Positions 3,001 to 61,706 of a stretch of DNA of 64,000 nt are shown here, piece by piece. A program made the position numbers and the translations under genes. The notes below the pieces were generated by a model that ran no database searches, had not been told where the DNA came from, and saw nothing but the letters and a program-made list of their open reading frames with translations. Source of the stretch: Acidobacteriota bacterium (lineage in GTDB: Bacteria > Acidobacteriota > UBA6911 > RPQK01 > JAJDTT01); NCBI GenBank assembly GCA_965217775.1, contig CBDCJH010000002.1:2528001-2592000 (forward strand). Direction: 5' to 3'. The number at the start of each line of letters is the position of its first letter. Position 1 is the first letter of the stretch.

Positions 3001-6000
3001 GTCGTTCCCTGCGGTGTCCTGAATCGGATTCGATCCCGGCTCATAGTTCACCCGGAGGCGGCTCTCTCCATCCGCGACGGCCGAGCTCAGCGTCAGGAAC
3101 ACGGCGCTTCCGCTGACCCGGACGCCGGTGACCGTCCGCGTCTCACTCCCGCCTGTCACGGTGAAGTCGTCCGTCGCCGGCACCGAAGAGGAATCCAACG
3201 GCTCGCCGTACGCCAGCGTCAGCGTCCTCCCGTTCACGACCGCTCCGTCGCTGGTCGCCAGAGTGGGCTTGACCCCATCCACCTGGTGCCGGGAATCGGC
3301 CGCGACCGGCGCGTGGTTCCGCACGGCGTTGTTCCGGGCGCCGTCGCGGATGGTGCCGCCGGACAGGCGGTTCGCCTCGATGCTCACCCCGTAAGCAGCA
3401 CTGTCGCCGGAGACCACCTGGTATTCGAACCTCACGGCGGCCCCCGTGACGTCCTGGTAGTTGGCCGTCCGGTTCCGGCCGCCCACGTTCAGCGTCAACC
3501 GTGGCGTCCCCGTCACCACCACCGTCTCGCTGAACGTCACCGTCACTTCGATGGTCTCGCCGGCCGCGTAGGTTGAATCCGATCCTGCGTTCGAGGTGAT
3601 CCTCACCGTCTCCACGGTCGGCCCCGTCGTGTCTCCCGTGTGGTTGGTGACCGGTTGGTTGTTCAGCTCATCCGCGGCGTTGCCCACCGGGTCCTCGATC
3701 GGATTCCCCCCCGGTTGGTAGCTCAACCGGAGGCCGCTCTCTGTGTCCTGCACGGTCGGACTCAGAGTCAGCAAGACCGCGCTTCCGCTCACCTGCACCC
3801 GGGTGACCGTCCGGGCCTCACTCCCCCCGGTCACGGTGAAGGCGCTCGCCGCCGGTCTTGAGGAGGAGTTCAGCGGCTCGCTGTAGGCCAGCGTCAGCTT
3901 CGTTCCGTTCACCACCGCCCCGTCCGTCGTGGCCAGCACTGGGAGGATCCCGTCCACCTGGTGCCGCGCATCGGCCGCCACCCCCGCGTGGTCCAAGGTG
4001 GCGTCATTCCGGGCGCCGTCGCGGATCGTCCCCGCACCGCGCGACAGGCTGTCCGCATCGATGCTCACTCCGTCCCCGTCGTTGTCACCCGGGACCACCC
4101 GGTAGGCGAACTTCACGGCCTGGTTCTTGACACTTCGGAAGTTCGCCGTTCGACTCCGACCGCCTACGTTCAGGGTCAATTGCGGGGTCACCGTCACCAC
4201 CACCGTCTCGTCGAACGTCACCGTCACTTCGATAGTCTCGTCCACCCCGTAGGTCCGATCCGACCCTGCACTCGAGGTGATCCGAACCGTCGATACGGTC
4301 GGTCCCGTCGTGTCTCCCGTCCGGTTCGTGACGCTCTTGCTGCTCAACCGGTCCGCGTCGTTGCCCGCCGTGTCCTGAATCGGATCCGACCCGGGCTCGT
4401 AGCTCACCCGAAGGCCGCGCTCACCGTCCGTTACGGCCGAGCTCACCGTCAGGAACACCGCGCTTCCGCTCACCCGGACGCCGCTGACCGTCCGCGTCTC
4501 ACTCCCTCCCGTCACGGTGAAGTCGTCCGTCACCGGCACCGAAGAGGAATCCAACGGCTCGCCGTAGGCCAGCGTCAGCGTCGTGCCGCTGGCCACCGCC
4601 CCGTCGGACGTCGCCAGCCTGGGCTTGACCCCATCCACCTGGTGCCGGGAATCGGCCGCCACCGGCGCGTGGTTCCGCACGGCGTTGTTCCGGGCGCCGT
4701 CCCGGATCGTCCCTCCCGACAGGCGGTTCGCGTCGATGCTCACCCCGTAAGCAGCACTGTCGCCGGAGACCACCTGGTATTCGAACCTCACGGCGGCCCC
4801 CGTGACGTCCTGGTAGTTGGCCGTCCGACTGCGGCCGCCCAGGTTCAGCGTCAACCGCGGCGTCCCCGTCACCACCACCGTCTCGTTGAACGTCACCGTC
4901 ACTTCGATGGTCTCGCCGGCCGCGTAGGTTGAATCCGATCCTGCGTTCGAGGTGATCCTCACCGTCTCCACGGTCGGCCCCGTCGTGTCTCCCGTCCGGT
5001 TCGTGACTGGTCGGTTGTTCAGCTCGTCCGCGGCGTTGCCCACCACGTCCTCGATCGGATTCCCCCCCGGCTGGTAGCTCAACCGGAGGCCGCTCTCTAT
5101 GTCCGTTACGGCCGGGTTCAACGTCAACAGGACCGCGCTTCCGCTCACCTGCACCCGGGTGACCGTCCGTGTCTCACTCCCCCCGGTCACGGTGAAGACG
5201 CTCGTCGCTGGTCGAGATGACGACCTCAGCGGCTCGCTGTAAGCCAGCGTCAGCGTCGTTCCGTTCACCACCGCCCCGTCCGTAGTGGCCAGCACCGGAG
5301 GCACCCCGTCCACTTGGTGCCGGGAATCGGCCGCCACCGCCGCGTGGTCGAGCTGCGCGTTATTCCGGGCGCCGTCCCGGATCGTCCCTCCACCGCGCGA
5401 CAGGCTGTCGGCATCGATACTCACGCCGTCCCGGTCGCTGTCGCCCCGGGAGACCTTGTACTCGAACTTCACGGCCGCCCCCGTGACACTCAGGTAGTCG
5501 GCCGTTCGATTCCGGCCGCCCACATTCAGCGTCAGCCGCGGGGTTCCCGTCACCACCACCGTTTCGTCGAACGTCACCGTCACCTCGATGAGATCTTCCA
5601 CCGCGTAGGTCCGATCCGACCCCGCATTGGAGGTGATCCTCACCATCTCGACCGTCGGTCCTCCCGCATCGCCTGTGTTGTTGGTGACGCTCTTGTTGAT
5701 CAACCGGTCCGCATCGTTGCCGGCCGTGTCCTGAATTGGGCTCGCGCTCGCCCCGGTCGGCACCGTATAGCTCACCCGCAGGCCCGTCTCCCAGTGCTCC
5801 ACCGCCGGAGTCAGGGTCAGCTCCACCGAGTTCCCGCTCACCCGGACTCCGGTGACCGCCCTCGTCTCGCTCCCCCCCGTCACGGTGAAAGCATCGTTCC
5901 CCGGCGCCGAGGATGTGTCCAGAGGCTCACTGTAGGCCAGCGTCAGCATCGTTCCGTTCGCGACGGCGCCGTCGGTGCTCGCCAGGACGGGTTTGATGCC

Positions 6001-9000
6001 GTCCACCTTCTGCCCGGTGTCGGCCGCCACGGTCGAGTGGGTCAGGACGGCATGGTTCCCTGCGGTATCCCGGATCGTCCCGGTCAGGCTGTCCGCCTCG
6101 ATGCTCACCCCGTCCGTGTCGCTGTCGTTGGTGGCGACCGTGTAGGCAAAGACCACCACCGCACCCGTGACGCTCTCGTAGTTCGCCGATCGATCCCGCT
6201 CGCCCACCTTCAGCGTCACCCGCGGGGTCCCGGTCACGGTCACGGTCTCGCTGAAGGTCACCGTCACCTCGATCTCCTCGCCGATGCCGTAGACGTCACG
6301 GCTGTCCGGAGGATCCGACGTGATCTCCACCGAGGTGACCGTCGGCGGAATCCGGTCCGGCGTCTCGTTCGTCACGGGCGCGCCGCTCAGTCCGTCCGCG
6401 TCGTTTCCGGCCCGGTCCTGAATCGGCGTCGCCCCCATCCCGGCCGGGACCGTGTAGCTCACCCGGATCCCCGTCTCCCAATGCGCCACGGCGGAGGAAA
6501 GAGTCAGATCCACCGCACTTCCCCTCAACGCAACATCGGAGACGGTGCGGGACGAAGACCCTCCCGACACGAAGAAGGCGCCGGACGGCGGCGTTGACGC
6601 CGAGTCCAACGTCTCGGTATAGGTCAGCGTCAGCGCCGCTCCGTTCACCACCGCTCCGCGGGTCGCCGCCAACTCCGGCTGGATGCCGTCCACCTTGTGC
6701 CGCGATTGGGTTCCCAGCGCCCGGTGATCCAGATCGGCCTCGTTGTCCGAGCCGTCCTTGAGGGTTCCTCCGTTGAGCGACAGGCTGTCGGCCGCGATGC
6801 TCACGCCGTTGGTGTCGACGTCGCCGGTGACCACCCGGTAGCGGAACAGGACTTCCGCGTCGGTGACGCTGTCGTAGTTCGCCGTTCGATCCTGTTCTCC
6901 CACCCTCAGCGTCAACTGCGGCGTCCCGGTCACGAAGACGTCCTCGCTGAAGGTCACCGTCACCTCGATCACGTCCCGGATCGCGTAAGTTGAATCCGAT
7001 CCCGCGTCCGACGTGATCTCCAGCCTGCTGACCGTCGGGCCCGTCGTATCCGGAATCGGGACGTCCACCGAGACCCGGGCACTGCGGCTCGCTTCGCCGC
7101 CGTTGATCACGGCCGCCACTTGATAGACGTAGGTGGCGCCGGCGGTCACGCCGGTATCGACGTATGCGCGGCTTGAAGTGTTCTCGGAGAGGATCCGGAC
7201 GGTGGTTCCGGAGGTGCGGTAGAGATTGTAGGTCACCCCAGAGACGGAGACGGCGGACCAGATCAGCGTCACCCGACCCAGCGCGGGGGTCGCCATCAGG
7301 GCCGGGCCGGCGCGAATCTGCTGGCCGAACTCCTGCCAGGTCTCCCCGCCGACCCCATTCGTGTCCACGGAAAGCGCGGGGTACTGGCTGGACGTCCCGA
7401 AGTCCCAGGGGGCGTCGTTCATGCCGTCCCCGTCCAGGTCCAGGTTCCAGTTCCGATAGATGCCGGCGTAGTCCGTGGGCGTCTGCAGGTTCGCCGTGGT
7501 CTGGGGCTGGCCGTAGGATCCGGATGCGCGTCCCGAGGTTTCGATATCCCAAAAGCTGTCGCTGATGGCGCCGCCGCCGGTGTTGCGTCCCACCAGCCCG
7601 CCGATGGTGCTTCGGCCCGAGACCAGACCGGTGGCGTAGCTGACGTTGACGTCACCGCTGTTCCGGCCGATCAATCCTCCCGCCTCGGAATCCCCCACGA
7701 CTCGGCCCGTCGCGTAGGCGGCGGTCACCTCGCCGCGGTTGGACCCGGCAAGACCGCCGACGCGGTCGTCTCCCGTCACCTGCACGGTGGAGTAGCTGAC
7801 GGTCACGGCCCCATCATTCAGGTTGGACCCGATCAGGCCGCCGACATCGTCGTCGCCAGTCACCTTTCCCGTGGCGAAGCATCCGCTGACGGCGCCGCCG
7901 TTGGACCCGACCAGGCCGCCGACGTTGTCCGTTCCCGTCACCTGGACAGCCACCAGCTCCAGGTTCCGGATGACGGCGGAGGATGTCGTCTCGCCGAACA
8001 ATCCGACATCGTTTCCACTCCTGTCGATAAACAGATTGGTGAGGGTTTCCCCGTTGCCCTCGAAGATCGCCGAGAAGCTGTCGGACGAGTCGCCGATCGG
8101 CACCCACCCGGCGCCGCCGTTCCAATAGGTGTCGCCGGCGTCGGCCTCGCCGCTATTGTCGGTGTCGAAGTCCGGATCGGCGCTCAGCTCGTACCCCACG
8201 CACCCGAAGAGTCCGCCGCAGGCCAGTTGGTCGCTCCCGTTGGCGAACGCCCTGGCATAGGACCTGGCGCCCGTGGTCGTCGGGACCCCATCCCCGTCCA
8301 GGTCATGACGGACGGCGTCGAGCTGAGCTGGATTGCTGATTTCGATGAGTCCGTCGTCGTCAGCGTCGTAGTCGGTCGTCGTGGTGGGCAGAACCGTCAC
8401 CGTGAACCGCTGTGTCCTGCTCTTGTTGGACCCCGTTTCGTCGGTCGCGGTCACCGTGATCGTCGCCTGACCCGCTCCGACCGATACCATCGTCACTCGC
8501 GTTCCCGCAACCGTCACCGAGGCGATGGTGGGGTCCGACGAGGACACGCCGTAGGTGATCGTGTCTCCCTCCGGATCCCGGAACGCCCCCGCCACCTCCG
8601 TCATGGCCGAGTCACCCACGCGCAGCGTTCGATCCGGCAAGGTTCCTACCGGCACTGGCCGGCTGTTGCCGACCACCGTTACCGACACTGTGGCGCTCCG
8701 CACGGCTTCGCCGCCGTTCACCACTGCAGCCACCTGGTAGACGTAGGTTTCGCCCGCGACGTCGGTGTCCGTGTACTCCCGCGCGGTGAGGTTCTCGGCG
8801 ATGGTCTCAAGGGTGGCGCCGTCGTCCCGGGTCACGGTGTAGGACAGGCTCGGCGCCGGGGTCCATGCACTACTCAACGGCACTTCGGTCCATTCCAGTT
8901 CCACCTGGCTCTGCCCGGCATTCTCCGTGGGTGTCGCGGTCAAGTTCGGACCGGACCGAAGCTGATAGCCGAACTCCTCCCACGTCGCATCGCCATCTCC

Positions 9001-12000
9001 ATTCCTGTCCGCTCGCAGGGCCGGGTACTGGCTGGAGGTTCCGAAATCCCAGGGATCATCGTTCACACTGTCTCCATTGATATCCAGGTTCCAGCTTCCA
9101 TAGATGCCACTGTAGCTCCGGGGCGACTGCAACTGCGCCGTCGTCCTGCCGAAGGGCAGGACCCCTGTCGCATGACCCGATGTTTGCTTGTCCCAGTAGC
9201 TGGCGTTGATGCTTCCCCCCTCGAACAACCCGATCAATCCATCGACATTGGAACCGCCCGACACAGTGCCCGTGGCGTAGCCGGCGCTGATCTCACCCGT
9301 TGATTTATTATTCCCGACGAGACCGCCCACGTCGGTATTCCCGGCCGCGCGGCCCGTGGCGTAGCTGGCGACAATCTCGCCACGGTTGTCCCCGACCAGC
9401 CCGCCCACGTCGTCGTCCCCTGAAACGTGACTTGTGGCATAGCTACCGCGAATTTCGGCGAAAAGGCTGTTGATCCCCACCAGACCGCCCACGTTATTGA
9501 TACTCGACACGCGGCCCGTGACGTAGCTGCTCCGAATTTTGCCGCGGTTGAGTCCAACCAGACCTGCGGCGAGCTCGGGTCCCGACACATCGGCATCGAT
9601 CAACCCGAGGTTCCGAATGTTGGAGGAAGATCCAGCGAAGCCGAACAACCCCACCAGGAATATCGTGTCGGTTCCGATAAACAGATGACTGACGGTATGC
9701 CCGTTGCCCTCGAAGTTCGCTGTGAATGGATTTTCCACGTGGTACGCCTGGGCGTCCAGCGTCGATCCGGCGCCGCCGATGGGCACCCACCCGGCACCGC
9801 CGTTCCAGTATTCGTCGGCGGCGTCGGCGGCGCCGTTGCCGTTGGTGTCGAAATCCAGATCCACCGTCAACTCGTAGCCTCGGCACCCGACCGAAAGGCT
9901 GCAACCCATCCACTCCACGGCATTTGCGAACGCTCTTTCATAGGAATTCTTCCCGCGGGCCGTGGGTGTGCCGTCGCCGTCCAGATCGTGACGGACGGCA
10001 TCGAGCTGCGCCAGATTGCCGATTTCGATGAGGCTGTCGTCGTCGGTGTCGTAGTCAACCGCGTTCGCCGGCCAGACCGTCACCGTGAATCGCTGAGTTG
10101 CTGAATTGTTCGACCCGGCGCTGTCGGTTGCAGTCACGGTGATCGCCGTCCGGCCTCCGGCTACCGGGGTGATGGTCAATTGGGCCGCAGACGAGGTGAC
10201 GGAGGCCACGGCCGTTTCCGATGAGGACGCCCCATAGGTGAGGGTGTCGCTCTCCGGGTCCCGGAACGCCTCCGAGAGTGCCACCGTCCCCGTGCCTGCA
10301 CCCACGCGCAGAAACAGATCCTCCAAGATCCCGACGGCTACCGGCGGTTGGTTGCCCTCGCCTACGATCACCGATACCGGTGCACTGCGGATCGCTTCAC
10401 CACCATCGAGCAGGGCCGTGACCCGGTAGGTGTAGGTGGCGCCGGTGGTCACATCCGTGTCGGTGTACCGGAGCGCCGTGGCGCCTTTCTCGACCGCCTC
10501 TTCCGTGGTTCCGTCGTCGCGCACGAGTGTGTAGGTGACGTCGGGCGCCGGGCTCCAGGGGCTCGTCGACACCTGAGTCCAAGCCAGAGCCACTTGGGCC
10601 TGGCCCTCCGTCGCCGCTGCCGTCAGGGTCAAGCCGCCCCGAACCTGGTACCCGAATTCCTGCCAGGTCGCGCTTCGGTTCCGATTCAGGTCCGCAGTCA
10701 GTGCGGGATACTGGCTGGACGTCCCGAAATGCCAGGGGGCGTCGGGCTCTCCATCGAGGTTGACGTCCAGATTCCAGGTTTCGTAGATGCCTTCGTAGTA
10801 CGTCGGTGCTTGAAGGACGGCGGTTGTCTGGCCGGCCAAGCCGATCGAATGCGACTCCGTGCCATCGATCACACCGTTTTCATTCGAGTCGTCCTCGCCG
10901 ACGCCGACGCGAACGCCCGACGCCTCCATATCCCAATAATTGCCACGGAGAACAACCTCCGAATGAGTGGTGCCCACCAGGCCGCCGACGCCCACGCTGC
11001 CGGAAACCATCCCCGTGGCATAGCTGGCAAATATGTGGCCGCCATACCTCCCCGGATAGCAGGCGTTTCCGACCAGGCCGCCGACACCGCCGCCACCGAG
11101 TTCACACTCGGACGCTCCCATCTGCCGTGACCCCGTTCCCGAAACGTTCCCGGTAGCGTAAGCGGCCCAGATCGAAGTGCCGGACGACCCCACCAACCCA
11201 CCTATGGCGTTGGCGCCCGACACGTCCCCGGTGGCATAGCAACTGCCTATTCGGGAATGGTTTAACAAGTTAGCTGCCTTGATTGTGGCTTGACTCCCAA
11301 TCAGTCCGCCAACACTATTTCTACCCGACACCTTGACGGCGGCGTAGCTCTCCCAAACACCGCTGTCGCTATCCCCGACAAGTCCACCCACCCTGTCCCG
11401 TCCAGCCACACGGCCTGAAGCATGACTCCGCCTGGTCTCTAAATCGTCGGCCCGGCCAACCAGGCTGCCGACCTTGTCCCGACCGCTGATGTCGACACCG
11501 ATCAACCCGACATCGAGAATGTCGAACCCCGCGTCTGTATGAATTTCATCAGCAAAAAGGCCCGGAACCGGACCCAATTGCCCGAACAAACCGATCTCAT
11601 CCTCGTCGGGCCGGTTGATGAACAGGTTGGTCAAGGAATGACCGTTGCCGTAGAACCTCACTATGAAGGGATCGTCCGAGTTTCCGATGGACAACCAACC
11701 CTTGCCCTCGTTCCAATAGGTGTCGTCCGAGTCGATGTTTCCATCGCCGTCGGTGTCGAAGTCCAGGTTCGCCGTCAGCTCATAACCGATGCATCCGTCG
11801 GTGGGAGGGCACCCCATTCCCAGAGCGCCCATGGGGTAGGCGGTGTAATACGGCATCCAGGTTGCGCCGTCCACTTGGCCATCGCCGTTGAGGTCGTACC
11901 GCAGGGCGTCGAGCTGCGCCAGATTGCCGACCTCGATCAGACCGTCATCATCGGTATCGTAGTCCCGACTCCCCGCCGTGATCGTGACCGAGACGGAGTC

Positions 12001-15000
12001 GACTGCGCTCAGGCCGTCGGGATCGATCGCGCGCAACCTCACCACGACGCGGCCGGGCGCCCCCGGGGTGATCGTCACCTGTGCGTTGCTTCGCGTGAGG
12101 GTCAGCCGGTCGGGGTCGCTCGACATCGCCTCATAGGTCAGCGTGTCGTCGTCCGGATCGTCGAAGACGTCCTCCAGATCGATGTCCACTGCATCGCCAC
12201 CCAGGGTGAATGTCCGGTCGGATTCGGCGTTCTCCACGGTCGGCGCCCGATTGCGGTCCGCCACTGCGGCATCGACGGCATCCACGGCGCCAGGAGCCAT
12301 CACGATGCCGGCTCCGGAATCGCGATCGACGCCGGTCGCCTCGATGTCCAGGACCGCGGTCCCGGTCGTCATTCCCGTACGGAGCTCCGCGAGCGTGACT
12401 TGGTTGGGACCACCGGCCGCCTCCAGCATCAACGCCGCGATGGCCGCCGCGTGCGGCGCCGCGGATGAAGTGCCGCAGAACGTCGAGAAGCCGGGCGTCG
12501 CCGTCGTCACGCACGTCGCAGCGGCGAGATCCGGCTTCTCCAGCAGTTGCCCGCCGGTCGAGGAGAAATTGCCGGCCGTGATCGCAGTGCCGTCCGGTTG
12601 GAAGAAGATCCGGCGCGGGCCGTCCGAATTTGCTCTCCGGACGGACTCATTCCCGTTGAAGACGCCGCCGGTCCCAGCAGCCGTGCGTACGTCGACCATC
12701 GCCACACCGATTGCGTTCTCCACCGCCGGATGCCCGTACATGTTACCAGCGGTAGCGATCGTCAACCGGCCGCCGAAGACTTGTACTCGCAGGTAGCGAT
12801 CCACGCCGGAGACCCTGACCACGACCACGCTGCGGCCAGACAAATGAACGTGGGGAATGAACTCGATCGGGTCCTGCGTTCCGTCCTGAGTATCGGTTGA
12901 GCTCTCGATTACGTCGCCGTCTTTATTGATCACGAACAGGTCGTAATCGTTCGTTGACACACCCAGCGGGTCGGCCCATTGAAGGACAATGGAGCCGTCC
13001 CCATAGTCGCTCAACGCGTTCGCTTCCACGCCACCGCCGAAGTCATGCCGGGCGCCGACTGTCTCACCGTCCACGACCAGCGTGCTTCCTGCGGCGTAGT
13101 CCCCCTCCCAGACGCTACTCGTGCCATTGGTCAGGTTGCCGTCGTTGCCGCCCGCCGAGAAGAAGAAACACCCGTCAGCGACCGCCGCATTGACTCCTTT
13201 CGCTATGATGCCGTCCTGAAAAACGGCTTCCGTGGAGTATCCGATGTCGTCGACGATGACGTTCGCACCGGCCTCGCAGAGCGCCTCGATGTTCTCCGCC
13301 ATCCGGGCCTCGCCTCCATAGCCTGTCGCGAAATACAATTCTGCTCCGGGCGCGAGGTCGTGGACGATCTCGAGCAGCGCCGTCCCCTCGTCCCCCTCTC
13401 CCTCCTCTCCCGGCAGCACCGTTACCCGGGCGGGTACGTCACCCGATGCCTGCCGGTCGGCGAGCGACCGGACACCGTCCGAGATCACGCCGATCCCGAT
13501 TCCAGTACCGTCGACCTTGTGAGTGCTGCGTGCCGAGTCCGCCCGATGGGCGACGTCACCTTCCGTGGTGTCGTCCTTTTTAGTGACCGGGAAATCCGCG
13601 GTCCGGGTCCGGGAGGCGGGAGAGAGTCTCGCGGCTTGGCCGCGTGTCCTGGCCTTGTCGGCGGGCCGGATGGTTCGGATCTCGTCCAGTGCGGCGAGCA
13701 TCACCACTGCGCGGAGCGGGATTTGCGCCCGGATGGCCTGGTACTTCGGAACGCTGCTGATGACCGTGCCGCCCAGCTCCCGGATCCGGATCAGGACGGC
13801 CGGCGTGACCTCGGCCCGGATGTCCACCATCACCCGTTCATCCGTGGCTTGCGGGTCCGTCCCTTCGAGACGGCCGGCCGCTGGCGGCTTCTGCCGCGGT
13901 GTCCGGCGGGCATCCAGAAGCTGCGAACTCACCTTCCGCTCGGCCGGCGTCCGGCGGACCTTGGCCGATAGCAGCGACTGGATCTGCCGCACGGCCCTCG
14001 CCGGCAGCCGGCCGCCGGCCGGCTTCGTCTCCTCGCCGGTCCGGTTCGTCATCGCCGCCGCATCGCTGTCCAAGAGAGCAGGCTTGACGCCGTCCACCCT
14101 CTGGCCGGCTTGGTCCGGCAGTCCCGCATGGTCCAGCTCTGCGGCATTGTCCGAACCGCCCTCGATTGCTCCGTTGTCCACGGAAAGGCTGTCCGCCTCG
14201 ACACTCAACCCGTCGGTGTCTTCATCGTCCTCGGCTACGGTGTAGGAGAACACCAGCGCCGTCGTGCCGGCGCCGCCAGTGTAGCTCGCGCTCCGGGTGA
14301 GGCTCCCCACCGTCAGCCCCAACTGCGGCGTCCCGGCCACGGTCACCGGTTCGCTGAAGGTCACCGTCACCTCGATCGCGTCCCCGATCCCGTAGGTCTC
14401 CCGGCCCTCCGGAGGATTCGAGCTGATCTCGATCTTTCGCACCGCCGGACCTGTCGCCCCGCTCAACGGCATAGGCTCGGGCTCGAGTCCTCCTCCTGTG
14501 ACTGCCGCGCGGAGTTCTTCCAGCGAGGTGTTGTGGACTCCACCGGCCGACTCCAGGGTCAGGGCCACCATCGCCGCCACCTGCGGAGGGGGCGCCGAGC
14601 TGACACAGAAGGTCGCGAAATCCGGATTGGCCGTAGTCACGCACGTCGCCCCGGAGAGGCCGGCGGTCGTCCCTGCCGAATCCCCGGTGTTCGATAGATC
14701 GTCCGCCAGCGGCGGCAATCGGTCCGGAGCGGTTTCGCCTTCTCTGACCCTGGAATGGACCGGGTTGCCCCGAGCAGAGACGTAGACGCAACCGTTGCGG
14801 ACCGCCGCGTGGACCGCCTGGGCCATGAGGCCGCCCTGATAGATCGTCTCCTGATGGTCGAAGAGGTCGTCGACGATGACGTCCGCCCCCGCCCGGCAGA
14901 GCGCCTCGAGGTTGGCCGCGAACCGCGCCGGCCCGCCCCGGCCGGTCGCGAAGTAGAGCTCGCCGCCCGGGGCCAGGTCGTGGAGGATCGAAAGGGTCGC

Positions 15001-15312
15001 GGTCCCGTCGTCGCCTTCTCCCGCCTGGCCCGGCAGCACCGTCACCCGATCCCGAAGATCGCCCGCTGCCTCACCGGTGATCAGCGTCGCCACACCGCTG
15101 GAGAGCACGCCGATCCCGACGCCCGTGCCGTCGACACCCTGACTCCGGCGCATCGCTGTGCCTGGCCGGGCGGCCTGCTTCTGTATTCCACCTCCAGCGG
15201 CGACAGCCGGCTGCTGGGCCCGGATCGGCTCGATCAACAGAGAGATCGCCGCCAACACCCCGAATACACCAAGGGCCCATGACGAGTTTCCTGACCAGCG
15301 TGACCGCCTCAT
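1..15312 (-). CDS. G1: giant secreted multidomain protein (>5100 aa, 3'-partial): signal peptide, degenerate subtilase, Ig-like unit, S8/S53-like subtilase, 3x (cadherin-like + GLUG beta-helix + Fn3-like), 8 Ig-like/SwmB-like units, Calx-beta-like, poly-Pro, Fn3, conserved C-terminal domains
   Basis: Absent from the ORF track because the stop lies outside the window. ATG at 15312 (after CCAGGATT) reads MRRSRWSGNSSWALGVFGVLAAISLLIEPIRAQQP, homologous to the G2/G3 N-termini. Codon 3..1 (TTG in GGELL) is in the same frame. Spot translations (VDGTGIGIGVISDG near 13470-13515, FCGTSSAAPH near 12450-12480, GLUG region 11221-11640) are open and colinear with G2/G3. Confidence 0.9.
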   Translation of the reverse strand, partial: MRRSRWSGNSSWALGVFGVLAAISLLIEPIRAQQPAVAAGGGIQKQAARPGTAMRRSQGVDGTGVGIGVLSSGVATLITGEAAGDLRDRVTVLPGQAGEGDDGTATLSILHDLAPGGELYFATGRGGPARFAANLEALCRAGADVIVDDLFDHQETIYQGGLMAQAVHAAVRNGCVYVSARGNPVHSRVREGETAPDRLPPLADDLSNTGDSAGTTAGLSGATCVTTANPDFATFCVSSAPPPQVAAMVALTLESAGGVHNTSLEELRAAVTGGGLEPEPMPLSGATGPAVRKIEISSNPPEGRETYGIGDAIEVTVTFSEPVTVAGTPQLGLTVGSLTRSASYTGGAGTTALVFSYTVAEDDEDTDGLSVEADSLSVDNGAIEGGSDNAAELDHAGLPDQAGQRVDGVKPALLDSDAAAMTNRTGEETKPAGGRLPARAVRQIQSLLSAKVRRTPAERKVSSQLLDARRTPRQKPPAAGRLEGTDPQATDERVMVDIRAEVTPAVLIRIRELGGTVISSVPKYQAIRAQIPLRAVVMLAALDEIRTIRPADKARTRGQAARLSPASRTRTADFPVTKKDDTTEGDVAHRADSARSTHKVDGTGIGIGVISDGVRSLADRQASGDVPARVTVLPGEEGEGDEGTALLEIVHDLAPGAELYFATGYGGEARMAENIEALCEAGANVIVDDIGYSTEAVFQDGIIAKGVNAAVADGCFFFSAGGNDGNLTNGTSSVWEGDYAAGSTLVVDGETVGARHDFGGGVEANALSDYGDGSIVLQWADPLGVSTNDYDLFVINKDGDVIESSTDTQDGTQDPIEFIPHVHLSGRSVVVVRVSGVDRYLRVQVFGGRLTIATAGNMYGHPAVENAIGVAMVDVRTAAGTGGVFNGNESVRRANSDGPRRIFFQPDGTAITAGNFSSTGGQLLEKPDLAAATCVTTATPGFSTFCGTSSAAPHAAAIAALMLEAAGGPNQVTLAELRTGMTTGTAVLDIEATGVDRDSGAGIVMAPGAVDAVDAAVADRNRAPTVENAESDRTFTLGGDAVDIDLEDVFDDPDDDTLTYEAMSSDPDRLTLTRSNAQVTITPGAPGRVVVRLRAIDPDGLSAVDSVSVTITAGSRDYDTDDDGLIEVGNLAQLDALRYDLNGDGQVDGATWMPYYTAYPMGALGMGCPPTDGCIGYELTANLDFDTDGDGNIDSDDTYWNEGKGWLSIGNSDDPFIVRFYGNGHSLTNLFINRPDEDEIGLFGQLGPVPGLFADEIHTDAGFDILDVGLIGVDISGRDKVGSLVGRADDLETRRSHASGRVAGRDRVGGLVGDSDSGVWESYAAVKVSGRNSVGGLIGSQATIKAANLLNHSRIGSCYATGDVSGANAIGGLVGSSGTSIWAAYATGNVSGTGSRQMGASECELGGGGVGGLVGNACYPGRYGGHIFASYATGMVSGSVGVGGLVGTTHSEVVLRGNYWDMEASGVRVGVGEDDSNENGVIDGTESHSIGLAGQTTAVLQAPTYYEGIYETWNLDVNLDGEPDAPWHFGTSSQYPALTADLNRNRSATWQEFGYQVRGGLTLTAAATEGQAQVALAWTQVSTSPWSPAPDVTYTLVRDDGTTEEAVEKGATALRYTDTDVTTGATYTYRVTALLDGGEAIRSAPVSVIVGEGNQPPVAVGILEDLFLRVGAGTGTVALSEAFRDPESDTLTYGASSSETAVASVTSSAAQLTITPVAGGRTAITVTATDSAGSNNSATQRFTVTVWPANAVDYDTDDDSLIEIGNLAQLDAVRHDLDGDGTPTARGKNSYERAFANAVEWMGCSLSVGCRGYELTVDLDFDTNGNGAADAADEYWNGGAGWVPIGGAGSTLDAQAYHVENPFTANFEGNGHTVSHLFIGTDTIFLVGLFGFAGSSSNIRNLGLIDADVSGPELAAGLVGLNRGKIRSSYVTGRVSSINNVGGLVGINSLFAEIRGSYATSHVSGDDDVGGLVGDNRGEIVASYATGRAAGNTDVGGLVGNNKSTGEISAGYATGTVSGGSNVDGLIGLFEGGSINASYWDKQTSGHATGVLPFGRTTAQLQSPRSYSGIYGSWNLDINGDSVNDDPWDFGTSSQYPALRADRNGDGDATWEEFGYQLRSGPNLTATPTENAGQSQVELEWTEVPLSSAWTPAPSLSYTVTRDDGATLETIAENLTAREYTDTDVAGETYVYQVAAVVNGGEAVRSATVSVTVVGNSRPVPVGTLPDRTLRVGDSAMTEVAGAFRDPEGDTITYGVSSSDPTIASVTVAGTRVTMVSVGAGQATITVTATDETGSNKSRTQRFTVTVLPTTTTDYDADDDGLIEISNPAQLDAVRHDLDGDGVPTTTGARSYARAFANGSDQLACGGLFGCVGYELSADPDFDTDNSGEADAGDTYWNGGAGWVPIGDSSDSFSAIFEGNGETLTNLFIDRSGNDVGLFGETTSSAVIRNLELVAVQVTGTDNVGGLVGSNGGAVSGCFATGKVTGDDDVGGLIGSNLNDGAVTVSYSTVQVTGDDRVGGLAGSNRGEVTAAYATGRVVGDSEAGGLIGRNSGDVNVSYATGLVSGRSTIGGLVGRNTGGGAISDSFWDIETSGRASGSYGQPQTTANLQTPTDYAGIYRNWNLDLDGDGMNDAPWDFGTSSQYPALSVDTNGVGGETWQEFGQQIRAGPALMATPALGRVTLIWSAVSVSGVTYNLYRTSGTTVRILSENTSSRAYVDTGVTAGATYVYQVAAVINGGEASRSARVSVDVPIPDTTGPTVSRLEITSDAGSDSTYAIRDVIEVTVTFSEDVFVTGTPQLTLRVGEQDRTANYDSVTDAEVLFRYRVVTGDVDTNGVSIAADSLSLNGGTLKDGSDNEADLDHRALGTQSRHKVDGIQPELAATRGAVVNGAALTLTYTETLDSASTPPSGAFFVSGGSSSRTVSDVALRGSAVDLTLSSAVAHWETGIRVSYTVPAGMGATPIQDRAGNDADGLSGAPVTNETPDRIPPTVTSVEITSDPPDSRDVYGIGEEIEVTVTFSETVTVTGTPRVTLKVGERDRSANYESVTGAVVVFAYTVATNDSDTDGVSIEADSLTGTIRDTAGNHAVLTHSTVAADTGQKVDGIKPVLASTDGAVANGTMLTLAYSEPLDTSSAPGNDAFTVTGGSETRAVTGVRVSGNSVELTLTPAVEHWETGLRVSYTVPTGASASPIQDTAGNDADRLINKSVTNNTGDAGGPTVEMVRITSNAGSDRTYAVEDLIEVTVTFDETVVVTGTPRLTLNVGGRNRTADYLSVTGAAVKFEYKVSRGDSDRDGVSIDADSLSRGGGTIRDGARNNAQLDHAAVAADSRHQVDGVPPVLATTDGAVVNGTTLTLAYSEPLRSSSRPATSVFTVTGGSETRTVTRVQVSGSAVLLTLNPAVTDIESGLRLSYQPGGNPIEDVVGNAADELNNRPVTNRTGDTTGPTVETVRITSNAGSDSTYAAGETIEVTVTFNETVVVTGTPRLTLNLGGRSRTANYQDVTGAAVRFEYQVVSGDSAAYGVSIDANRLSGGTIRDGARNNAVRNHAPVAADSRHQVDGVKPRLATSDGAVASGTTLTLAYGEPLDSSSVPVTDDFTVTGGSETRTVSGVRVSGSAVFLTVSSAVTDGERGLRVSYEPGSDPIQDTAGNDADRLSSKSVTNRTGDTTGPTVSTVRITSSAGSDRTYGVDETIEVTVTFDETVVVTVTPQLTLNVGGRSRTANFRSVKNQAVKFAYRVVPGDNDGDGVSIDADSLSRGAGTIRDGARNDATLDHAGVAADARHQVDGILPVLATTDGAVVNGTKLTLAYSEPLNSSSRPAASAFTVTGGSEARTVTRVQVSGSAVLLTLSPTVQDTESGLRLSYQPGGNPIEDPVGNAADELNNQPVTNHTGDTTGPTVETVRITSNAGSDSTYAAGETIEVTVTFSETVVVTGTPRLTLNVGGRNRTANYQDVTGAAVRFEYQVVSGDSAAYGVSIEANRLSGGTIRDGARNNAVRNHAPVAADSRHQVDGVKPTLATSDGAVVNGRTLTLAYGEPLDSSSVPATDDFTVTGGSETRTVTGVRVSGSAVFLTLSSAVADGESRLRVNYEPGSNPIQDTAGNDADRLSSKSVTNRTGDTTGPAVSRVRITSSAGSDRTYGVDEAIEVTVTFDETVVITGTPELTLNVGGGNRRAEYRSVSTRAVKFAYRVVTGDNDEDGVSLEENRLSRAGGRIRDGAGNDATLDYEAVAASSSHKVDAVAPVLALTDPAVVNGATLTLTYNEPLDTSSRPATSDFTVEGGNETRTVTRVQVSGSTVRLTVNPAAEYGETGIRVSYEPRSNPIQDPVGNDAEAFRDQFVDNRTPDTTAPSIEGIEISSNPGTDETYAVDDMISVTVRYDEPVTVDTIRGTPTLDLLVGTRRKRASASVGPDQPAVLFVYTVEKGDEDEDGVSVPRGSISLNGGKILDLADNPAARSYEAVEAQADHKVDASVPGLEGVTVHGSRVALTYDEALDEGSTPSRFDFAVTVAGDDRMVLQVRVSGNSVILTLTSRVTAGETVRVSYTPGLDPLQDEVGNTVEALTDQRADPPLVTIQAKQGSETVTEGDTVEFTLTRGPPTEAPLTVNLEVTETRSMIETSGDYAPPEEVEFRTGQETATLEVLTDDDDVAESTSRVTARLLPGDEYRLGPTSTRSARVTVQDNEVSAPPPPPPPPPPPPPPPPPPPPPPPPPPPPPPPPPPPPAATVPTAPLNLQAEAGDGEVTLTWKAPESDGRSALTGYQVRIDRAGDWTSIGSTDLTHTVAGLTNGRTYIFEVRAVNEVGQSPPSSPVEATPMAEEVILEFAHFGNGVSGDDVLITSDLVLVNVAENEIRPVIYFFDREGDLFEAESVVDVGEDLEIREDGGLAPRTEIASLGELTISTHGRGEVVTGSVRVVSDGPIGGVVRFDIPGIGVAGVGASEPTSDALFPARRQSGGIRTAAAIHNLGMEAVDVQCRLMKDGRVLEEGEIELSANGQDAQFLEELFTATDTTDFVGSVRCTVPAGESFTGVAVELDAGNRIFTTLPVVPIGPEATEDQETTLNFAHFANGTSGDGTLITSDLVLVNVAASTARPAIYFYDQGGELL
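1147..1254 (-). repeat. Poly-proline tract, 36 Pro codons (G1)
   Basis: 108 nt of CCN codons with mixed synonymous usage, between the Calx-beta-like and Fn3 domains. Confidence 0.95.
1640..7050 (-). repeat. Intragenic tandem array of 8 ~680-bp Ig-like + SwmB-like units (G1)
   Basis: IEVTVTF..V.VTGTP and AVVNG.TLTL.Y.E.L motifs recur, with unit starts near 7050, 6360, 5670, 4990, 4310, 3630, 2955 and 2280. Confidence 0.85.
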
Positions 15313-15357
15313 AATCCTGGGGTGAGGAAGAATCGGTGTCCTTACGGGGACTTCGAT

Positions 15358-15471
15358 AAAGAGCGGGAAGGGAGGGTCGCTCTCATCCGTCTATCTTTAG
15401 ACTGCCGCTCGGCAGGGTGCTCCGAGCTATGCACTGTCTCTCCACATGATGAGTTCCATGTAATAGACATT
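15358..15471 (-). ncRNA. Candidate structured 5' leader RNA, copy 1 (family unassigned)
   Basis: Closing helix GUCUAUU/GAUAGAC (15468..15389), inner hairpin ACAUG-GAACUCAU-CAUGU, CUGCC/GGCAG hairpin, and a downstream GAGAGCG/CGCUCUU hairpin. 17-nt and 23-nt blocks are identical to 61494-61614. Confidence 0.4.
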
Positions 15472-15477
15472 GGGTCG

Positions 15478-15563
15478 ATTATAAGGAGCAACCCGGACGA
15501 ATTTGGGGCCTAATAGTGAAATCTGAGTGATATTTTGGTCGGTATAGTGATACTATAGTGAAA
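15478..15563 (-). promoter_or_regulatory. Conserved promoter module 1: -10 TATAAT plus four direct repeats
   Basis: TATAAT at 15483-15478 on the minus strand. Plus-strand GTGAAA 15516, GTGATA 15527, GTGATA 15547, GTGAAA 15558. Geometry is identical in all four intergenic regions. Confidence 0.75.
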
Positions 15564-15570
15564 TGTTCCA

Positions 15571-15600
15571 CCCGGACCGCCCTCACCGGCGGTGACCGGG
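15571..15600 (-). terminator. GC-rich hairpin 3' of G2 without a U-tract (possible terminator, pause or stability element)
   Basis: CCCGG-UC-ACCGCC-GGUGAG-GGCGGU-CCGGG. Weaker versions sit at the same position after G3, G4 and G6. Confidence 0.25.
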
Positions 15601-15641
15601 GGATTCAGGGAGGGGATCGTCTTCCGACTACTCTCGGCAGG

Positions 15642-18600
15642 TCATCTTTGAATCGGCACCACCGGCAGGGTGGTGAAGATCCGGTTGCCGGTATCCAGCT
15701 CTACCGCGACTCCCGTGAACAGGCCTTCCCCGAGAGCCGTGCATCTCACCGATCCGACGAAGTCTCTGGTATCCGTCCGGGTGAAGACCTCTTCGATGAA
15801 CCGGGCTTGCTGTCCGTGCGCGTTGAGACGAATGTCTACCTCTTCCAGGGCCTCGCCCCCGCTCATCAATTGACACCGCACCGTTGCGCGCTGCGCCGCC
15901 AGGTTGCGGATCGCCGCCGCGGTGCGGATCCCTCCCGCTTGCCTGCGGGCCGGGAACAGGGCGTCCACCGTGGGTTGACTCGCGCCCACGCCGGCCACGC
16001 CGACGCCCGGGATGTCGAAGCGCAGGACGCCGCCGATGGGCCCGTTCGCCACCACCCGCACCGATCCGGTCACCACCTCGCCCCGGCCGTGGGTCGAGAT
16101 CGTCAGCTCGCCCAGTCGGGCCAGGGCCGTTCGCAGGGTCAGACTTCCGTCCTCTCGGACGAGAAGATGGTCTTCGACCTCCACCATCGATTCCGGCTCC
16201 AATAGCTCTCCGCCCTGATCGTAAAAGTAGATGGCGGGACGGGCGGTCGAAGCGGCCACGTTCACCAGCACCAGGTCGGAGGTGATCAAGGTTCCGTCGG
16301 CGGAAGTTCCATTGGCGAAATGCGCGAAGGTCAGGGTCGTTTCTTCCTCTTCGCCGCCGTCCGGATCCACGGGCACCACCGGCAGCGTGGTGAAGATCCG
16401 GTTGCCCGCATCCAGCTCCACCGCCACTCCCGTGAACGACTCACCGGCCGGGACCGTACAACGCACCGACCCCACGAAGTCCGTGGTGTCGGTCTCCGTG
16501 AACAACTCCTCGAGGAACTGGGCATCCTGGCCGTTGGCGCTGAGTTTGATCTCCCCCTCTTCCAGTACCCTGCCGTTCTTCAGCAACCGGCACTGCACCT
16601 TCACCGCTTCCGGGCCCAGGTTGTGGATCGCTGCCGCCGTCCGGATCCCGCCCGCCTGCCTCCGGGCCGGGAACAGGGCGTCCGCCGTGGGTTCGCTGGC
16701 GCCCACGCCGGCCACCCCGATCCCGGGGATGTCAAAGCGCACCACTCCGCCGACAGGTCCGTCCGACACGACTCGGACTGATCCGGTCACCACCTCGCCC
16801 CGGCCGTGGGTGGAGATCGTCAACTCGCCCAGCGACGCGATCTCTGTCCGGGGCGTCAGCCCTCCGTCCTCCCGGATCTCCAGATCGTCCCCGAGGTCCA
16901 CCACGGACCCGGCTTCAAACAGATCTCCCTCCCGGTCGAAGAAGTAGATGACGGGACGGATCTCCGACTCGGCCACGTTCACCAGCACCAGGTCGGAGGT
17001 GATGAGCACGTCGTTGTCCGAATAGCCGTTGCCGAAATGGGCAAACTCCAGGATCACCTCCTCGGCCATGGGCGTGGACTCGACTGCGTCGGAGGGGGGA
17101 CTCTGGCCGATCTCGTTCACGGCCCGCACTTCGAAGACGTAGGTCCGGCCGTTGGTCAGTCCGGTGACCGTATGGGTCAGGTCCGTGGAGCCGATGGAGG
17201 TCCACTCCCCGGCCCGGTCGATCCGGACCTCGTAGCCGGTGAGTGCAGACCGGCCGTCGCTCTCGGGAGCCTTCCAGGAGAGCGTCACTTCACCGTTCCC
17301 GGCTTCTGCCTGCAGGTTCAGCGGTGCCGTGGGCGCCGTCGCAGCCGGCGGCGGAGGTGGCGGCGGAGGCGGAGGCGGTGGCGGCGGAGGCGGAGGCGGC
17401 GGGGGAGGTGGCGGTGGAGGAGGAGGGGGAGGCGGCGGCGGGGTCGAGACTTCGTTGTCCTGGACCGTCACGCGGGCGCTCTGAGTCGAAGCGGATCCCA
17501 GCCGGTACTCGGCTCCCGACTGCAGCCGGGCGGTGACCCGGCTGGTGGATTCGGCGACGTCGTCATCGTCGGTCAACACCTCCAGCGTCGCCGTCTCCTG
17601 CCCGGACCGGAACTCCACCTCCTTCGGCGGATCGTACCCGCCCGAGGTCTCGATCATCGATCTCGTCTCCGTGACCTCCAGGCTCACCATCAGCGGGGCC
17701 TCCGTCGGGGGTCCGCGCGTCAGGGTGAACTCCACGGTGTCGCCTTCCGTCACCGTCTCGGATCCCTCCTTGGCCTGGATGGTCACCAGGGGCGGGTCTA
17801 CCCTTCGATCCGTCAACCCATCCACGGCGTTGCCCACCTCGTCCTGGATCGGGTTGAACCCTGGCGTATAGCTCACCATCACGAGTTCGCCCGCCGTCAC
17901 CGCTGAGGTCAGCCTCAAGATGACGCTGTTTCCGCTCACCCGAACCTGGAGCACCGTTCGATCATCCCCGGCCACCGTGACCTCGAAGTCGGAGTTCGAC
18001 GGTGTCGAGCCCTCATCCAGCGCCTCGTCGTAGGTCAGCGCCACCCGCGAGCCATGCACCGTCACGCCCTCCAGTCCCGGCACGCTCGCATCCACCTTGT
18101 GGTCCGCCTGCGCCTCCACCGCTTCGTAGCTCCGCGCCGCCGGGTTGTCCGCCAGATCCAGGATCTTTCCTCCATTGAGCGCGATGCTCCCGCGCGGGAC
18201 GCTCACTCCGTCCTCGTCCTCGTCCCCTTTCTCCACCGTGTAGACGAACATCACCGCCGCCCGGTCCGACCCGACAATGGCGCTGGCCCGCTTCCGCCGG
18301 GTCCCCACCAGCAGGTCCAACGTCGGCGTTCCGCGAATGGTGTCCACCGTCACCGTCTCGTCGTACCGCACCGTCACCGAGATCATGTCGTCGACCGCGT
18401 AGGTCTCGTCCGTCCCCGGGTCCGAGCTGATCTCGATCCCTTCGATCGACGGGGCCGTCGTGTCCGGCGTCCGGTTGTCCACGAACTGGTCCCTGAAGGC
18501 ATCGGCGTCGTTGCCCACCCGGTCCTGGATCGGGTTCGATCGCGGCTCGTAGCTCACCCGGATCCCCGTCTCTCCGTACTCCGCCGACGGGTTCACCGTG

Positions 18601-30171: not shown

Positions 30172-30290
30172 CGTCGGGCACCCGTTGTGGGTGCCCGTTG
30201 TTGCCCCCCGCTGATCGGCGCAGGGAGGGCAACCACACAAGGGTTGCCCCCACGAGCCCGGGGAGGGCGACCACAAGGGTCGCCCCTACG
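30172..30290. repeat. Cluster of GTAG-type REP palindromes (REPIN-like) in the G2 leader
   Basis: GGGCACCC-GTTGT-GGGTGCCC (30176-30196), GGGCAACC-ACACAAG-GGTTGCCC-CCACG (30227-30254) and GGGCGACC-ACAAG-GGTCGCCC-CTACG (30265-30290). The last reads GTAGGGGCGACCCTTGTGGTCGCCC on the minus strand, the GTAG-foot plus hairpin form of RAYT-associated REPs. Confidence 0.8.
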
Positions 30291-30336
30291 GGTGTGCGAG
30301 CGTCCGCTGTTCCATCCTCTATCCGTCCACGTGTCG

Positions 30337-30422
30337 ATTTTAAGGAACAACCCGGACGAATTTGGAGCTAATTCGTGAAATTAGGATGATATTTTGGTCA
30401 GTACAGTGATACTTTAGTGAAA
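30337..30422 (-). promoter_or_regulatory. Conserved promoter module 2
   Basis: -10 TAAAAT at 30342-30337. Repeats GTGAAA 30375, ATGATA 30386, GTGATA 30406, GTGAAA 30417. Confidence 0.75.
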
Positions 30423-30500
30423 TGTTCCACCCGAACCGCCCTCACCGGGGGCGACCGGGGGATTCAGGGAAGGGATCGTCTTTCGACTACTCTCGGCGGG

Positions 30501-49238: not shown

Positions 49239-49271
49239 CTTCCGGGGGTCGGGGACAGGTGAGGATCGCGG

Positions 49272-49350
49272 CGTAGGGGCACCCCTTGTGGGTGCCCGCT
49301 GTCGCCCCTACGAGCCCGGGGAGGGCGACCACACAAGGGTCGCCCCTACG
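49272..49350. repeat. Inverted pair of GTAG-type REPs (REPIN-like) with an internal REP fragment, in the G3 leader
   Basis: cGTAG-GGGCACCC-CTTGT-GGGTGCCC (49272-49297), fragment GTCGCCCCTACG (49301-49312), and inverted GGGCGACC-ACACAAG-GGTCGCCC-CTACg (49323-49350). Confidence 0.8.
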
Positions 49351-49396
49351 GGTGTGCGAGCGTCCGCTGCTCCATCCTCTATCCGTCCACGTGTCG

Positions 49397-49482
49397 ATTT
49401 TAAGGAGCAACCCGGACAAATTTGGAGCTAATCCGTGAAATTAGGATGATATTTTGGTCTGTATAGTGGTTCTTCAGTGAAA
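49397..49482 (-). promoter_or_regulatory. Conserved promoter module 3
   Basis: -10 TAAAAT at 49402-49397. Repeats GTGAAA 49435, ATGATA 49446, degenerate GTGGTT 49466, GTGAAA 49477. Confidence 0.72.
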
Positions 49483-49560
49483 TGTTCCACCCGGACCGCC
49501 CTCAGCGGGGGCAACCGAGGGATTCAGGGAGGGAATCGTCTTCCGACGACTCTCGGCGGA

Positions 49561-60831: not shown

Positions 60832-61442
60832 TAGGGGGAACGGTGCATCAGGCGGGTTCCCTCGGCTTGCGACCCCAGCACCTCACATTCCAGAGGCGGC
60901 ATCTCGACTCGGCTGACGGCGTACAGTCCATCGCCCGCCGACCGAATCCAGTAGGTCCCACCGAGTGTCCGTACCGTGCCGGCGACCGTCTCGCCGTTGA
61001 CGACGAGCGTCACCGTACCCGGCTCTTCCCCAACGAGCCGGCCCGATAATGAATAACCGCCCGAGAACGTCGGCGCCGTCCGCTCGACGATCCCTGTGAA
61101 CACCACGTCCTCGAACAGGTTCAAGGTCAAGGTCTCATCCGCCGCAGGCACCCGGTCACGCACGCCCCGACGCGGCGACACGACTTCCGTCTGCACGCGG
61201 GGGCGGGAGAGCACGGAGGCGGCGGCCCGGGCGCGCTGGAGCCGTTGCAAGTCGATCGTCACCAGCCGGCGGCGCACCACCGTGGCGTCGTGCGACGCGG
61301 GGGCGGGCGAATCCAGCCGTGCCGCCGGGCGATCGATCGTGGAAAAGAGGTCTCGGCTCCGGGCCTCGACGGCTAAGGGGGCCAGCCACGCCAGCCCCAA
61401 GACGAAGACCACTGTGATGCTCCGCACGCTTGTCCACGACAC
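60831..61442 (-). CDS. G5: secreted 203-aa protein resembling a stand-alone prodomain of bacterial M12B/reprolysin metallopeptidases
   Basis: GTG start with GGAGG 9 nt upstream. Signal peptide ending VEA|. LTLNLFEDVVFTGIVER...GYSLSGRL...VTLVVNG..VAGTVRT...Y.IR...PPLEC resembles M12B propeptides. Its TAA overlaps the G4 ATG (TAATG). Confidence 0.8.
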   Translation of the reverse strand: MSWTSVRSITVVFVLGLAWLAPLAVEARSRDLFSTIDRPAARLDSPAPASHDATVVRRRLVTIDLQRLQRARAAASVLSRPRVQTEVVSPRRGVRDRVPAADETLTLNLFEDVVFTGIVERTAPTFSGGYSLSGRLVGEEPGTVTLVVNGETVAGTVRTLGGTYWIRSAGDGLYAVSRVEMPPLECEVLGSQAEGTRLMHRSP

Positions 61443-61614: not shown

Positions 61615-61620
61615 GTGTCT

Positions 61621-61706
61621 ATTGTAAGAAGGAACCCGGACGATATTGGTTCAAATACATGAAAATAGGGTGATATTTTCGTTGATAAAGTGATACTTCA
61701 GTGAAA
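61621..61706 (-). promoter_or_regulatory. Conserved promoter module 4
   Basis: -10 TACAAT at 61626-61621. Repeats ATGAAA 61659, GTGATA 61670, GTGATA 61690, GTGAAA 61701. Confidence 0.75.

Follow-up and report, generated by a model that had tools for sequence, protein, structure and literature searches.

A lineage-specific leader module preceding giant secreted-protein genes of two Acidobacteriota species

Five giant genes and the junctions between them

The window, by which we mean the whole 64,000-nt stretch of Acidobacteriota DNA that was analysed, contains five giant ORFs arranged in tandem, all of them minus-strand (>5104, 4902, 6245, 3756, and >733 aa), with a 203-aa ORF before the 3756-aa one. 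Two of the junctions between them carry the leader element described here, which we refer to as copy 1 and copy 2. The genes that follow these two copies are:

1 to 15312, minus strand: giant ORF downstream of copy 1, >5104 aa, running off the window, with a signal-peptide-like N-terminus
60831 to 61442, minus strand: 203-aa ORF after copy 2, ending flush against the start of the 3756-aa ORF
49561 to 60831, minus strand: 3756-aa M12B/Calx-beta/LRR ORF

A first-pass annotation had labelled the gene after copy 1 a subtilase; its first 500 aa match no Pfam or NCBIfam family. The gene after copy 2 had been read as the start of an M12 prodomain, and that label does not hold either: the 203-aa ORF matches no Pfam or NCBIfam family, and M12B/reprolysin is found in the next ORF, the one of 3756 aa. 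The 203-aa ORF has a signal-peptide-like start, and it is this gene, not the protease, that copy 2 directly serves.

All giant ORFs of the array end in a common domain of ~250 aa with the terminus ...GNRIFTTLPVVPIQR, which matches no Pfam or NCBIfam family and may be a sorting or secretion domain. In the window it is encoded at 15642-16400 and 61785-62550 (minus strand) and at the ORF ends at 30501 and 49561; the otherwise unrelated gene at L018, a locus elsewhere in this genome, has it too (positions 2500-3126 of that locus). The 4902-aa ORF has two of these domains in tandem. Paralogs agree in ~95% of the bases that encode the domain, a figure suggestive of gene conversion.

The same C-terminal domain stands at the end of a third kind of gene, headed by two further copies of the element (L018 and L020, introduced below), and at all four junctions between the giant ORFs of the window this domain end is followed by one and the same type of promoter. 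Since domain and promoter are both shared, the genes that had been described as unrelated are members of one family.

Nor is the element an isolated feature common to two such genes. When 1.15 kb from each of the two loci is aligned, mean column identity is 92% over 1166 columns, and similarity stops only past hairpin P4 at the 3' end of the leader. The repeat is thus >1.1 kb long, with the element as its last part. It comprises the final ~750 nt of the upstream giant ORFs, coding for the repeated C-terminal domain, then a GC-rich hairpin, an AT-rich promoter (four TCACT repeats and a TATAAT or TACAAT box), and finally the leader. Because upstream and intergenic sequences are alike over >1 kb, we regard the element as part of a duplicated junction cassette. 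The promoters of the window are:

15478 to 15483, minus strand: TATAAT box of copy 1, the presumed -10, without a -35 consensus
15513 to 15563, minus strand: four direct TCACT repeats of copy 1, the putative activator site of the shared promoter
61621 to 61706, minus strand: copy 2 promoter with its TACAAT box and TCAC repeats
30310 to 30425, minus strand: paralogous promoter with another leader, without the ~88-nt element
49380 to 49490, minus strand: paralogous promoter with another leader, without the element

The TCACT repeats are spaced 11, 20, and 11 bases apart (measured between CACT starts), and the four matches compare with 0.18 expected. A sigma-70 scan found no promoter site at either locus, and the transcription start site predicted in the first-pass annotation was read solely from the TATAAT/TACAAT box.

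A MAFFT alignment of six array promoters is near-identical to just past the -10 box and then divides into two leader classes. In the class without the element, at 30.3 kb and 49.4 kb, the leader begins GUGGACGGAUAGAGG... and continues into REP-like repeats. The word GACGGAU(G)AGAG follows directly on the -10 region in this class and directly on P1' in the element class, and because its position shifts in this way the element core from P1 to P1' (~88 nt) can be read from the alignment as a discrete indel between the classes.

The REP-like palindromic repeats fill the other leader type at 49260-49380 and 30200-30310 on the minus strand. The word GTAGGGGCGACC has 29 occurrences in the genome, and a second REP-like family, G(G/C)GACATCC(C/T)TGTC(G/C)C, which P4 resembles, has 31.

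The leader module, its copies, and its distribution

Copy 1 starts directly behind the TATAAT box and finishes with hairpin P4. The element is present at both places proposed in the first-pass annotation, on the minus strand, with the following parts:

15358 to 15474, minus strand: leader module copy 1 (type A), 150 bits with covariance model R1
15463 to 15468, minus strand: 5' arm of P1, GUCUAU, with its partner AUAGAC at 15389-15394
15444 to 15456, minus strand: near-invariant block GAACUCAUCAUGU
15402 to 15415, minus strand: hairpin P3, CUGCC-GAGC-GGCAG
15380 to 15388, minus strand: tail GGAUGAGAG, directly 3' of P1
15359 to 15384, minus strand: hairpin P4, GAGAGCG/CGCUCUU, with the pyrimidine-rich loop ACCCUCCCUUCC and without a U tract
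61494 to 61617, minus strand: leader module copy 2 (type A), 136.1 bits with model R1
61604 to 61611 with 61524 to 61531, minus strand: P1 of copy 2
61494 to 61519, minus strand: P4 of copy 2

The block GAACUCAUCAUGU contributes the loop and the 3' arm to the inner hairpin (P2), and it is also the 5' strand of a long-range pairing with the tail. That tail, GGAUGAGAG, has the CUCAUCAU block as its partner or else pairs within P4. P3 reads CCUGC/GCAGG in other type A copies and CGAU/GUUG in type B, a subfamily described below. The blocks GAACTCATCATGTGGAGAGACAG and GCTCGGAGCACCCTGCC are indeed identical in the two copies of the window.

BLAST against the genome itself (G000) finds two close copies (E 1.6e-68 and 6.1e-21; further rows at E 0.79 and 2.75 are chance), and a covariance-model search added one diverged copy, L018. 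There are eight full copies in all, namely copy 1, copy 2, and L018 in G000 and L005, L006, L007, L008, and L020 in a congener, G014, together with the truncated L058. All nine have the same orientation and lie directly downstream of the TCACT promoter. Three of them (L008, L018, and L020) form the type B subfamily, in which the TCACT promoter is kept, a hairpin is added at the 5' side, and the core is shorter. Types A and B are 57-63% identical over the element and 47-67% over the promoter, and the runs GAACUCA.CAUG, CGG.G.ACCC, and CUAAAGA are kept across both. The 3' part of the module is degenerate in L007.

A DNA search with the promoter returned 8 places in G000, 5 in G014, and nothing in the family's 13 remaining genomes. 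The 8 places found by BLAST in G000 comprise two with the full element, one (L058) with a truncated element, and five with the other leader; overall this genome has at least nine occurrences of the promoter cassette (3 full element, 1 truncated, 5 other leader). Since five paralogous cassettes bear another leader, the element is dispensable for promoter function. All four G014 rows that cover the promoter itself have the element directly after it, and the fifth covers just the upstream end of the cassette, at the L006 locus. In L058 (positions 1600-1660; G000:C2 near 1235730, plus strand) the cassette runs through the promoter and ~25 nt into the element, as far as GAACTCATC, and there gives way to unrelated sequence, a join that would show the cassette to recombine within the leader.

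A scan of the family gave matches in 2 of 15 genomes, G000 and G014, and model R1 over 76 genomes of the order gave real copies there alone (3 and 5, respectively). A degenerate three-block pattern searched in the genomes of 185,579 species returned a single record, titled as an Acidobacteriota MAG, whose copy scores 105.7 bits, equal to L007. The exact 23-nt block had no match in genome contigs, and the three-block degenerate pattern had none in JGI metagenome contigs. With filters off, the regions upstream of L018-gene homologs in congeners contained no element (the best score, 14.4 bits at E 0.018, lies elsewhere in L035), and the two of these regions that were read through showed no TCACT promoter. 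The element is lineage-specific, confined to two species of one Acidobacteriota genus.

Some candidates were discarded. L021, obtained with a looser pattern in metagenome contigs, is a chance match in a coding-like stretch that lacks the other blocks and to which model R1 does not respond. The match L022 in G011, from a covariance-model search of nine genomes of the genus, has neither promoter nor blocks. In G022, G051, and G047 the model matched only a P4-like hairpin; weak matches of this kind in other families arise because P4 resembles the REP-like hairpin. A loose scan for P4-like hairpins returned 302, belonging to the REP-like family only, with no further leaders.

As to known RNA families, Rfam had no match anywhere in the window at gathering scores. 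With E up to 10, the stretch 15200-15700 gave only two snoRNA-type chance matches on the opposite strand, and with E up to 1 the five loci with other copies gave none. The first-pass annotation had held that the likeness to two known aptamers was superficial, and this stands: there is no Rfam 15 match to SAM-I (RF00162) or glycine (RF00504). Among the papers listed, judged by title and opening of the abstract, we found none on this leader element.

Pairing in the leader RNA

The helices drawn in the first-pass annotation are feasible: P1 (GUCUAU/AUAGAC), the inner hairpin, and the next hairpin (GAGAGCG/CGCUCUU or GGGAGCGAG/CUCGCUCUC) can all form. What could not be maintained is that P1 substitutions compensate each other between the two copies. 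The changes are one-sided (U-A to U-G, U-G to C-G), with no double changes. P1 is paired in 29 of 30 cells in the five type A copies and is not kept in the type B columns. Over all copies, P1 is 80% paired and P2 68.8%, with P1 failing in type B and L007 in the MAFFT columns; shifted P1/P2 alternatives can be drawn by eye and are present in the MFE fold of L018.

The pseudoknot between loop and tail, in the register first proposed, is fully paired in three of the eight copies, has one mismatch in three more, and has three of five pairs mismatched in the remaining two (77.5% of cells paired). The structure as a whole is 78.2% paired, and four pairs are changed on both sides vs 4.1 in shuffles.

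When given all eight copies, RNAalifold selects a long-range helix together with the small hairpin P3. Its covariation term is +1.53 with six sequences and +0.09 with eight, which lends no net support. The helix joins the near-invariant C-UC-UCAU-UG to the tail GAC-GGAUGAGAG (columns 26-37 with 100-109). It is the earlier loop-tail pairing moved by two bases, nested instead of knotted, and it excludes the inner hairpin, P1, and P4. The proposal of mutually exclusive structures therefore survives in altered form: the tail GAUGAGAG can pair with CUCAUCAU or with the 3' arm of P4.

Long-range helix and P3 together (13 pairs, eight copies) have 87.5% of cells paired. Their covariation score is 0.330 vs 0.188 in shuffled alignments and is reached by 1 of 500 shuffles, a figure to be read with the caveat that related sequences can outscore every shuffle without any structure. 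Two column pairs of the long-range helix vary in type B: 31/106 goes from U-A to G-U in L018 and L020, and 33/104 from A-U to G-C in L020, where L018 shows the intermediate state A.C. P3 (helix 2) is 90.6% paired, and two of its four pairs are changed on both sides (U-A/G-C/C-G to G-U/A-U/U-G). P4 is kept in six of the eight copies, and its pair 110/121 (alignment A3) is A.C, A-U (3 copies), or G-C (1 copy). Many of the substitutions lead to G-U, so that pairing is kept solely in the RNA of the minus strand. The answer on covariation among homologs is divided: there are double changes in the loop-tail pairing, P3, and P4, and the diverged copies do not keep P1 and P2.

Because the long-range helix was picked by RNAalifold on the same eight sequences, the controls and the held-out comparison are biased towards it; with that in mind, all six slid controls have at most 48.1% of cells paired, and, of the two held-out copies, L018 obtains 36.1 bits under the long-range + P3 model, 33.5 under a P1-based model, and 29.6 under a sequence-only model, the corresponding values for L020 being 32.7, 26.7, and 23.1 bits; the sequence-only model has a lower information content. 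The held-out scores appear to favour structure only mildly.

Folding stability is uneven. Against 300 dinucleotide shuffles, the MFE z-scores of copies 1 and 2 are -2.50 and -2.60, and those of the other six copies are -0.31, -0.61, +0.95, -1.31, -1.14, and +1.40; the antisense strand of copy 2 has a similar z-score of -2.42. Between the orthologs copy 1 and L005, identity is 89% over the element (71/80), 94% over tail and P4, 98% over the rest of the UTR, and 91% over the core promoter. At 89% vs 91-98% in the flanks, the element is not specially conserved. Taken over eight sequences from two clades and two species, the comparison appears to lend a structure modest support.

The customary outputs of a leader RNA were also sought. 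No terminator-like site was found at either locus. P4 has a 12-nt loop and no U tract, and it is therefore not an intrinsic terminator; it lies 45-70 nt from the start codons, and its 3' flanks read UUUAUCG, CUGCGG, and CUUUCCG. We found no expression platform, whether intrinsic terminator or ribosome-binding-site masking, that alternates with an aptamer. A leader peptide encoded by a conserved short ORF was likewise not found: the frames opened by the AUG of the invariant block vary in length and sequence, and in L008 a stop follows this AUG immediately.

RNA libraries labelled sponge metagenome contain near-identical pieces of the region. Among RNA-library contigs from two studies (>=85% likeness), the element is covered by records from two runs of one study (X14, records 9 and 10; X15, records 17 and 18). 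Being ~86-94% alike, these contigs come from relatives; X14 and X15 contain copies that are ~86-90% alike and differ in their flanks. Their depth is low, they could be DNA carry-over, and because record 9 also crosses the promoter no transcription start site is supported. The contigs show the presence of the element in RNA libraries, and neither a start site nor regulation.

In the same contigs, summed depth at 15616-15768 and 15973-16074 rises to 20 to 100x the neighbouring level, reaching ~1700, and loose ends are numerous. Both of these parts lie within the coding region of the C-terminal domain and are stretches common to many related genes or organisms.

What the module may do

The ~115-base leader module is real: in two related species it precedes some of the genes for giant secreted proteins, and it may regulate these genes as a cis-acting RNA. 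Our preferred reading, to which we give a probability of roughly 40%, is a cis-acting RNA leader in which the CUCAUCAU/GAUGAGAG helix alternates with P4 and the inner hairpin and so affects elongation, processing, or stability of the message. The element would form the 5' leader within a promoter cassette that has been duplicated and that heads giant secreted proteins with one type of C-terminal domain, and it would be transcribed from the TATAAT box. Once made, the near-invariant CUCAUCAU would pair over a long range with the GAUGAGAG tail, to the exclusion of the inner hairpin and P4. The output would be a change in elongation (e.g., Rho-dependent), processing, or stability of very long mRNAs; we favour this over intrinsic termination or ribosome-binding-site masking because P4 has no U tract and lies far from the ribosome-binding site. 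As the trigger, recognition of the invariant blocks by a protein or a small RNA seems likelier than a metabolite.

A bolder form of this proposal sees in the module a new, lineage-restricted class of riboregulator, in which the choice between the CUCAUCAU/GAUGAGAG helix and P4 is set by a host-derived or cell-state signal and so separates, within a co-regulated family of giant secreted proteins with a probable role in host interaction, a subset from the paralogs that have this promoter without the module. We put this forward as speculation, with the odds well against it.

Among the alternatives, the one to take most seriously is that the leader has no function. Its likeness between loci would stem from recent duplication and gene conversion of the cassette, and its helices would be due to chance or to self-complementary repeats. 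A repeat of >1 kb at 92% identity is what such a history would leave, and so is an element conserved no better than its flanks between orthologs. Several cassettes have also lost the module or keep it in truncated or degenerate form (5 of 9 in G000 lack it), its folding stability is inconsistent, and its spread is narrow, with real matches in 2 of 15 family genomes and 2 of 76 order genomes. Against a mere passenger, types A and B have drifted to 57-63% identity in the element and 47-67% in the promoter and yet keep the conserved runs, while P3, P4, and the long-range helix keep pairing by means of double changes. On balance, we find a functionless leader somewhat unlikely. If it were one, the finding of "two unrelated genes" with a common element would come down to a homogenised 1.1-kb junction cassette, and sequence identity within that cassette would therefore be no evidence of selection on the RNA.

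The conserved blocks may instead act as DNA. Lying 3' of the -10 box, they could bind a transcription factor, either as a repressor or roadblock site or by adding one more site, the fifth, to those of the factor that binds the TCACT repeats. The inner hairpin of type B is a DNA palindrome, TCACA-N12-TGTGA in L008, whose 5' half TTTCAC resembles the promoter repeats, and sequence blocks are conserved more than helices. The palindrome is, however, imperfect in seven of the eight copies, and G-U-type variation amounts to mismatches in DNA. In copy 1 the last promoter repeat is 58 bp from the site, which is out of helical phase, and P3 and P4 covary. We consider a DNA operator distinctly unlikely.

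A true metabolite or ion riboswitch, with an aptamer closed by P1 and a loop-tail pseudoknot, is very unlikely in our estimation. The evidence for a riboswitch, drawn from eight sequences in two clades and two species, is thin. The 5' UTR position would suit it, as would invariant unpaired blocks, a tail that overlaps the next hairpin, and the placing of P1 exactly at the limits of the ~88-nt module, which is missing from the other leader type. Most of the remaining evidence goes the other way. Rfam has no match even at E up to 10, the pseudoknot register is fully paired in only three of eight copies, P1 and P2 are lost in type B or L007, six of eight copies have no excess stability, there is neither a terminator nor ribosome-binding-site masking, the downstream genes encode giant secreted proteins and not transport or metabolic functions, and just two species have the element.

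Comparison with known leaders bears on the same question. There are riboswitch and attenuator leaders, e.g., those of the SAM-II, preQ1-II, and fluoride classes, whose loop pairs with a 3' tail. Like these, the element is part of a 5' UTR, and an invariant stretch of its loop is complementary to the bases that follow the closing helix; these bases also belong to the next hairpin, so that the structures are mutually exclusive. Unlike these, it has short and inconsistently kept helices, belongs to no Rfam family, occurs in two species, shows no excess stability in six of eight copies, has neither a U-tract terminator nor ribosome-binding-site masking, and precedes genes for giant secreted proteins.

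A second point of reference is the JUMPStart/ops leader elements, which are read by RfaH-type NusG paralogs. The resemblance is in short conserved blocks placed in the 5' leader of very long units for secreted or surface products, and the difference is that five giant-gene cassettes here do without the element. No specialised NusG paralog of the RfaH or LoaP type was found: PF02357 matches one gene per genome in eight of nine genomes of the genus, G000 and G014 among them, so that these two have the same count as congeners without the element. The exception, G010, has two near-identical PF02357 matches on two contigs and 8% contamination.

P4 (GCGAC-CAUCCCUUC-UCGC) resembles the 31-fold hairpin among the REP-like palindromes of this genome. 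It differs from them in its fixed position in the leader, its own stem sequence, and its retention across two species and both types A and B.

Finally, a MITE-like mobile element inserted after the promoter is scarcely credible: a short non-coding module at some paralogous sites only, an ~88-nt indel against the other leader type, with inverted-repeat ends (GTCTAT/ATAGAC), might suggest one, but the inverted repeats are merely 6-8 bp long, no target-site duplication is apparent on either side, and the genome of 6.4 Mb has just three full and one truncated copies, co-oriented, in one context, and at the same place after the same promoter.

Should the cis-acting RNA leader that we prefer prove functional, a symbiont-type bacterium would control part of a giant secreted-protein family apart from the rest, with one activator-type promoter fitted with or without an RNA module. 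It would also add a lineage-specific regulatory RNA to a phylum with few known.

TCAC-repeat promoters lie on the minus strand of the window at 15513-15563, 30371-30425, 49440-49490, and 61656-61706, and elsewhere in the genome at G000:C2 near 48240, 1235613, 2607202, and 2620184. The repeat has the form (A/T)TCAC(T) and stands upstream of a TATAAT-like box without a -35 consensus. A loose regular expression for the repeat array finds 9 sites in the genome vs 2 in a reversed-genome control, four of them at unrelated loci; from its sequence, the array resembles a set of binding sites for a regulon-defining activator.
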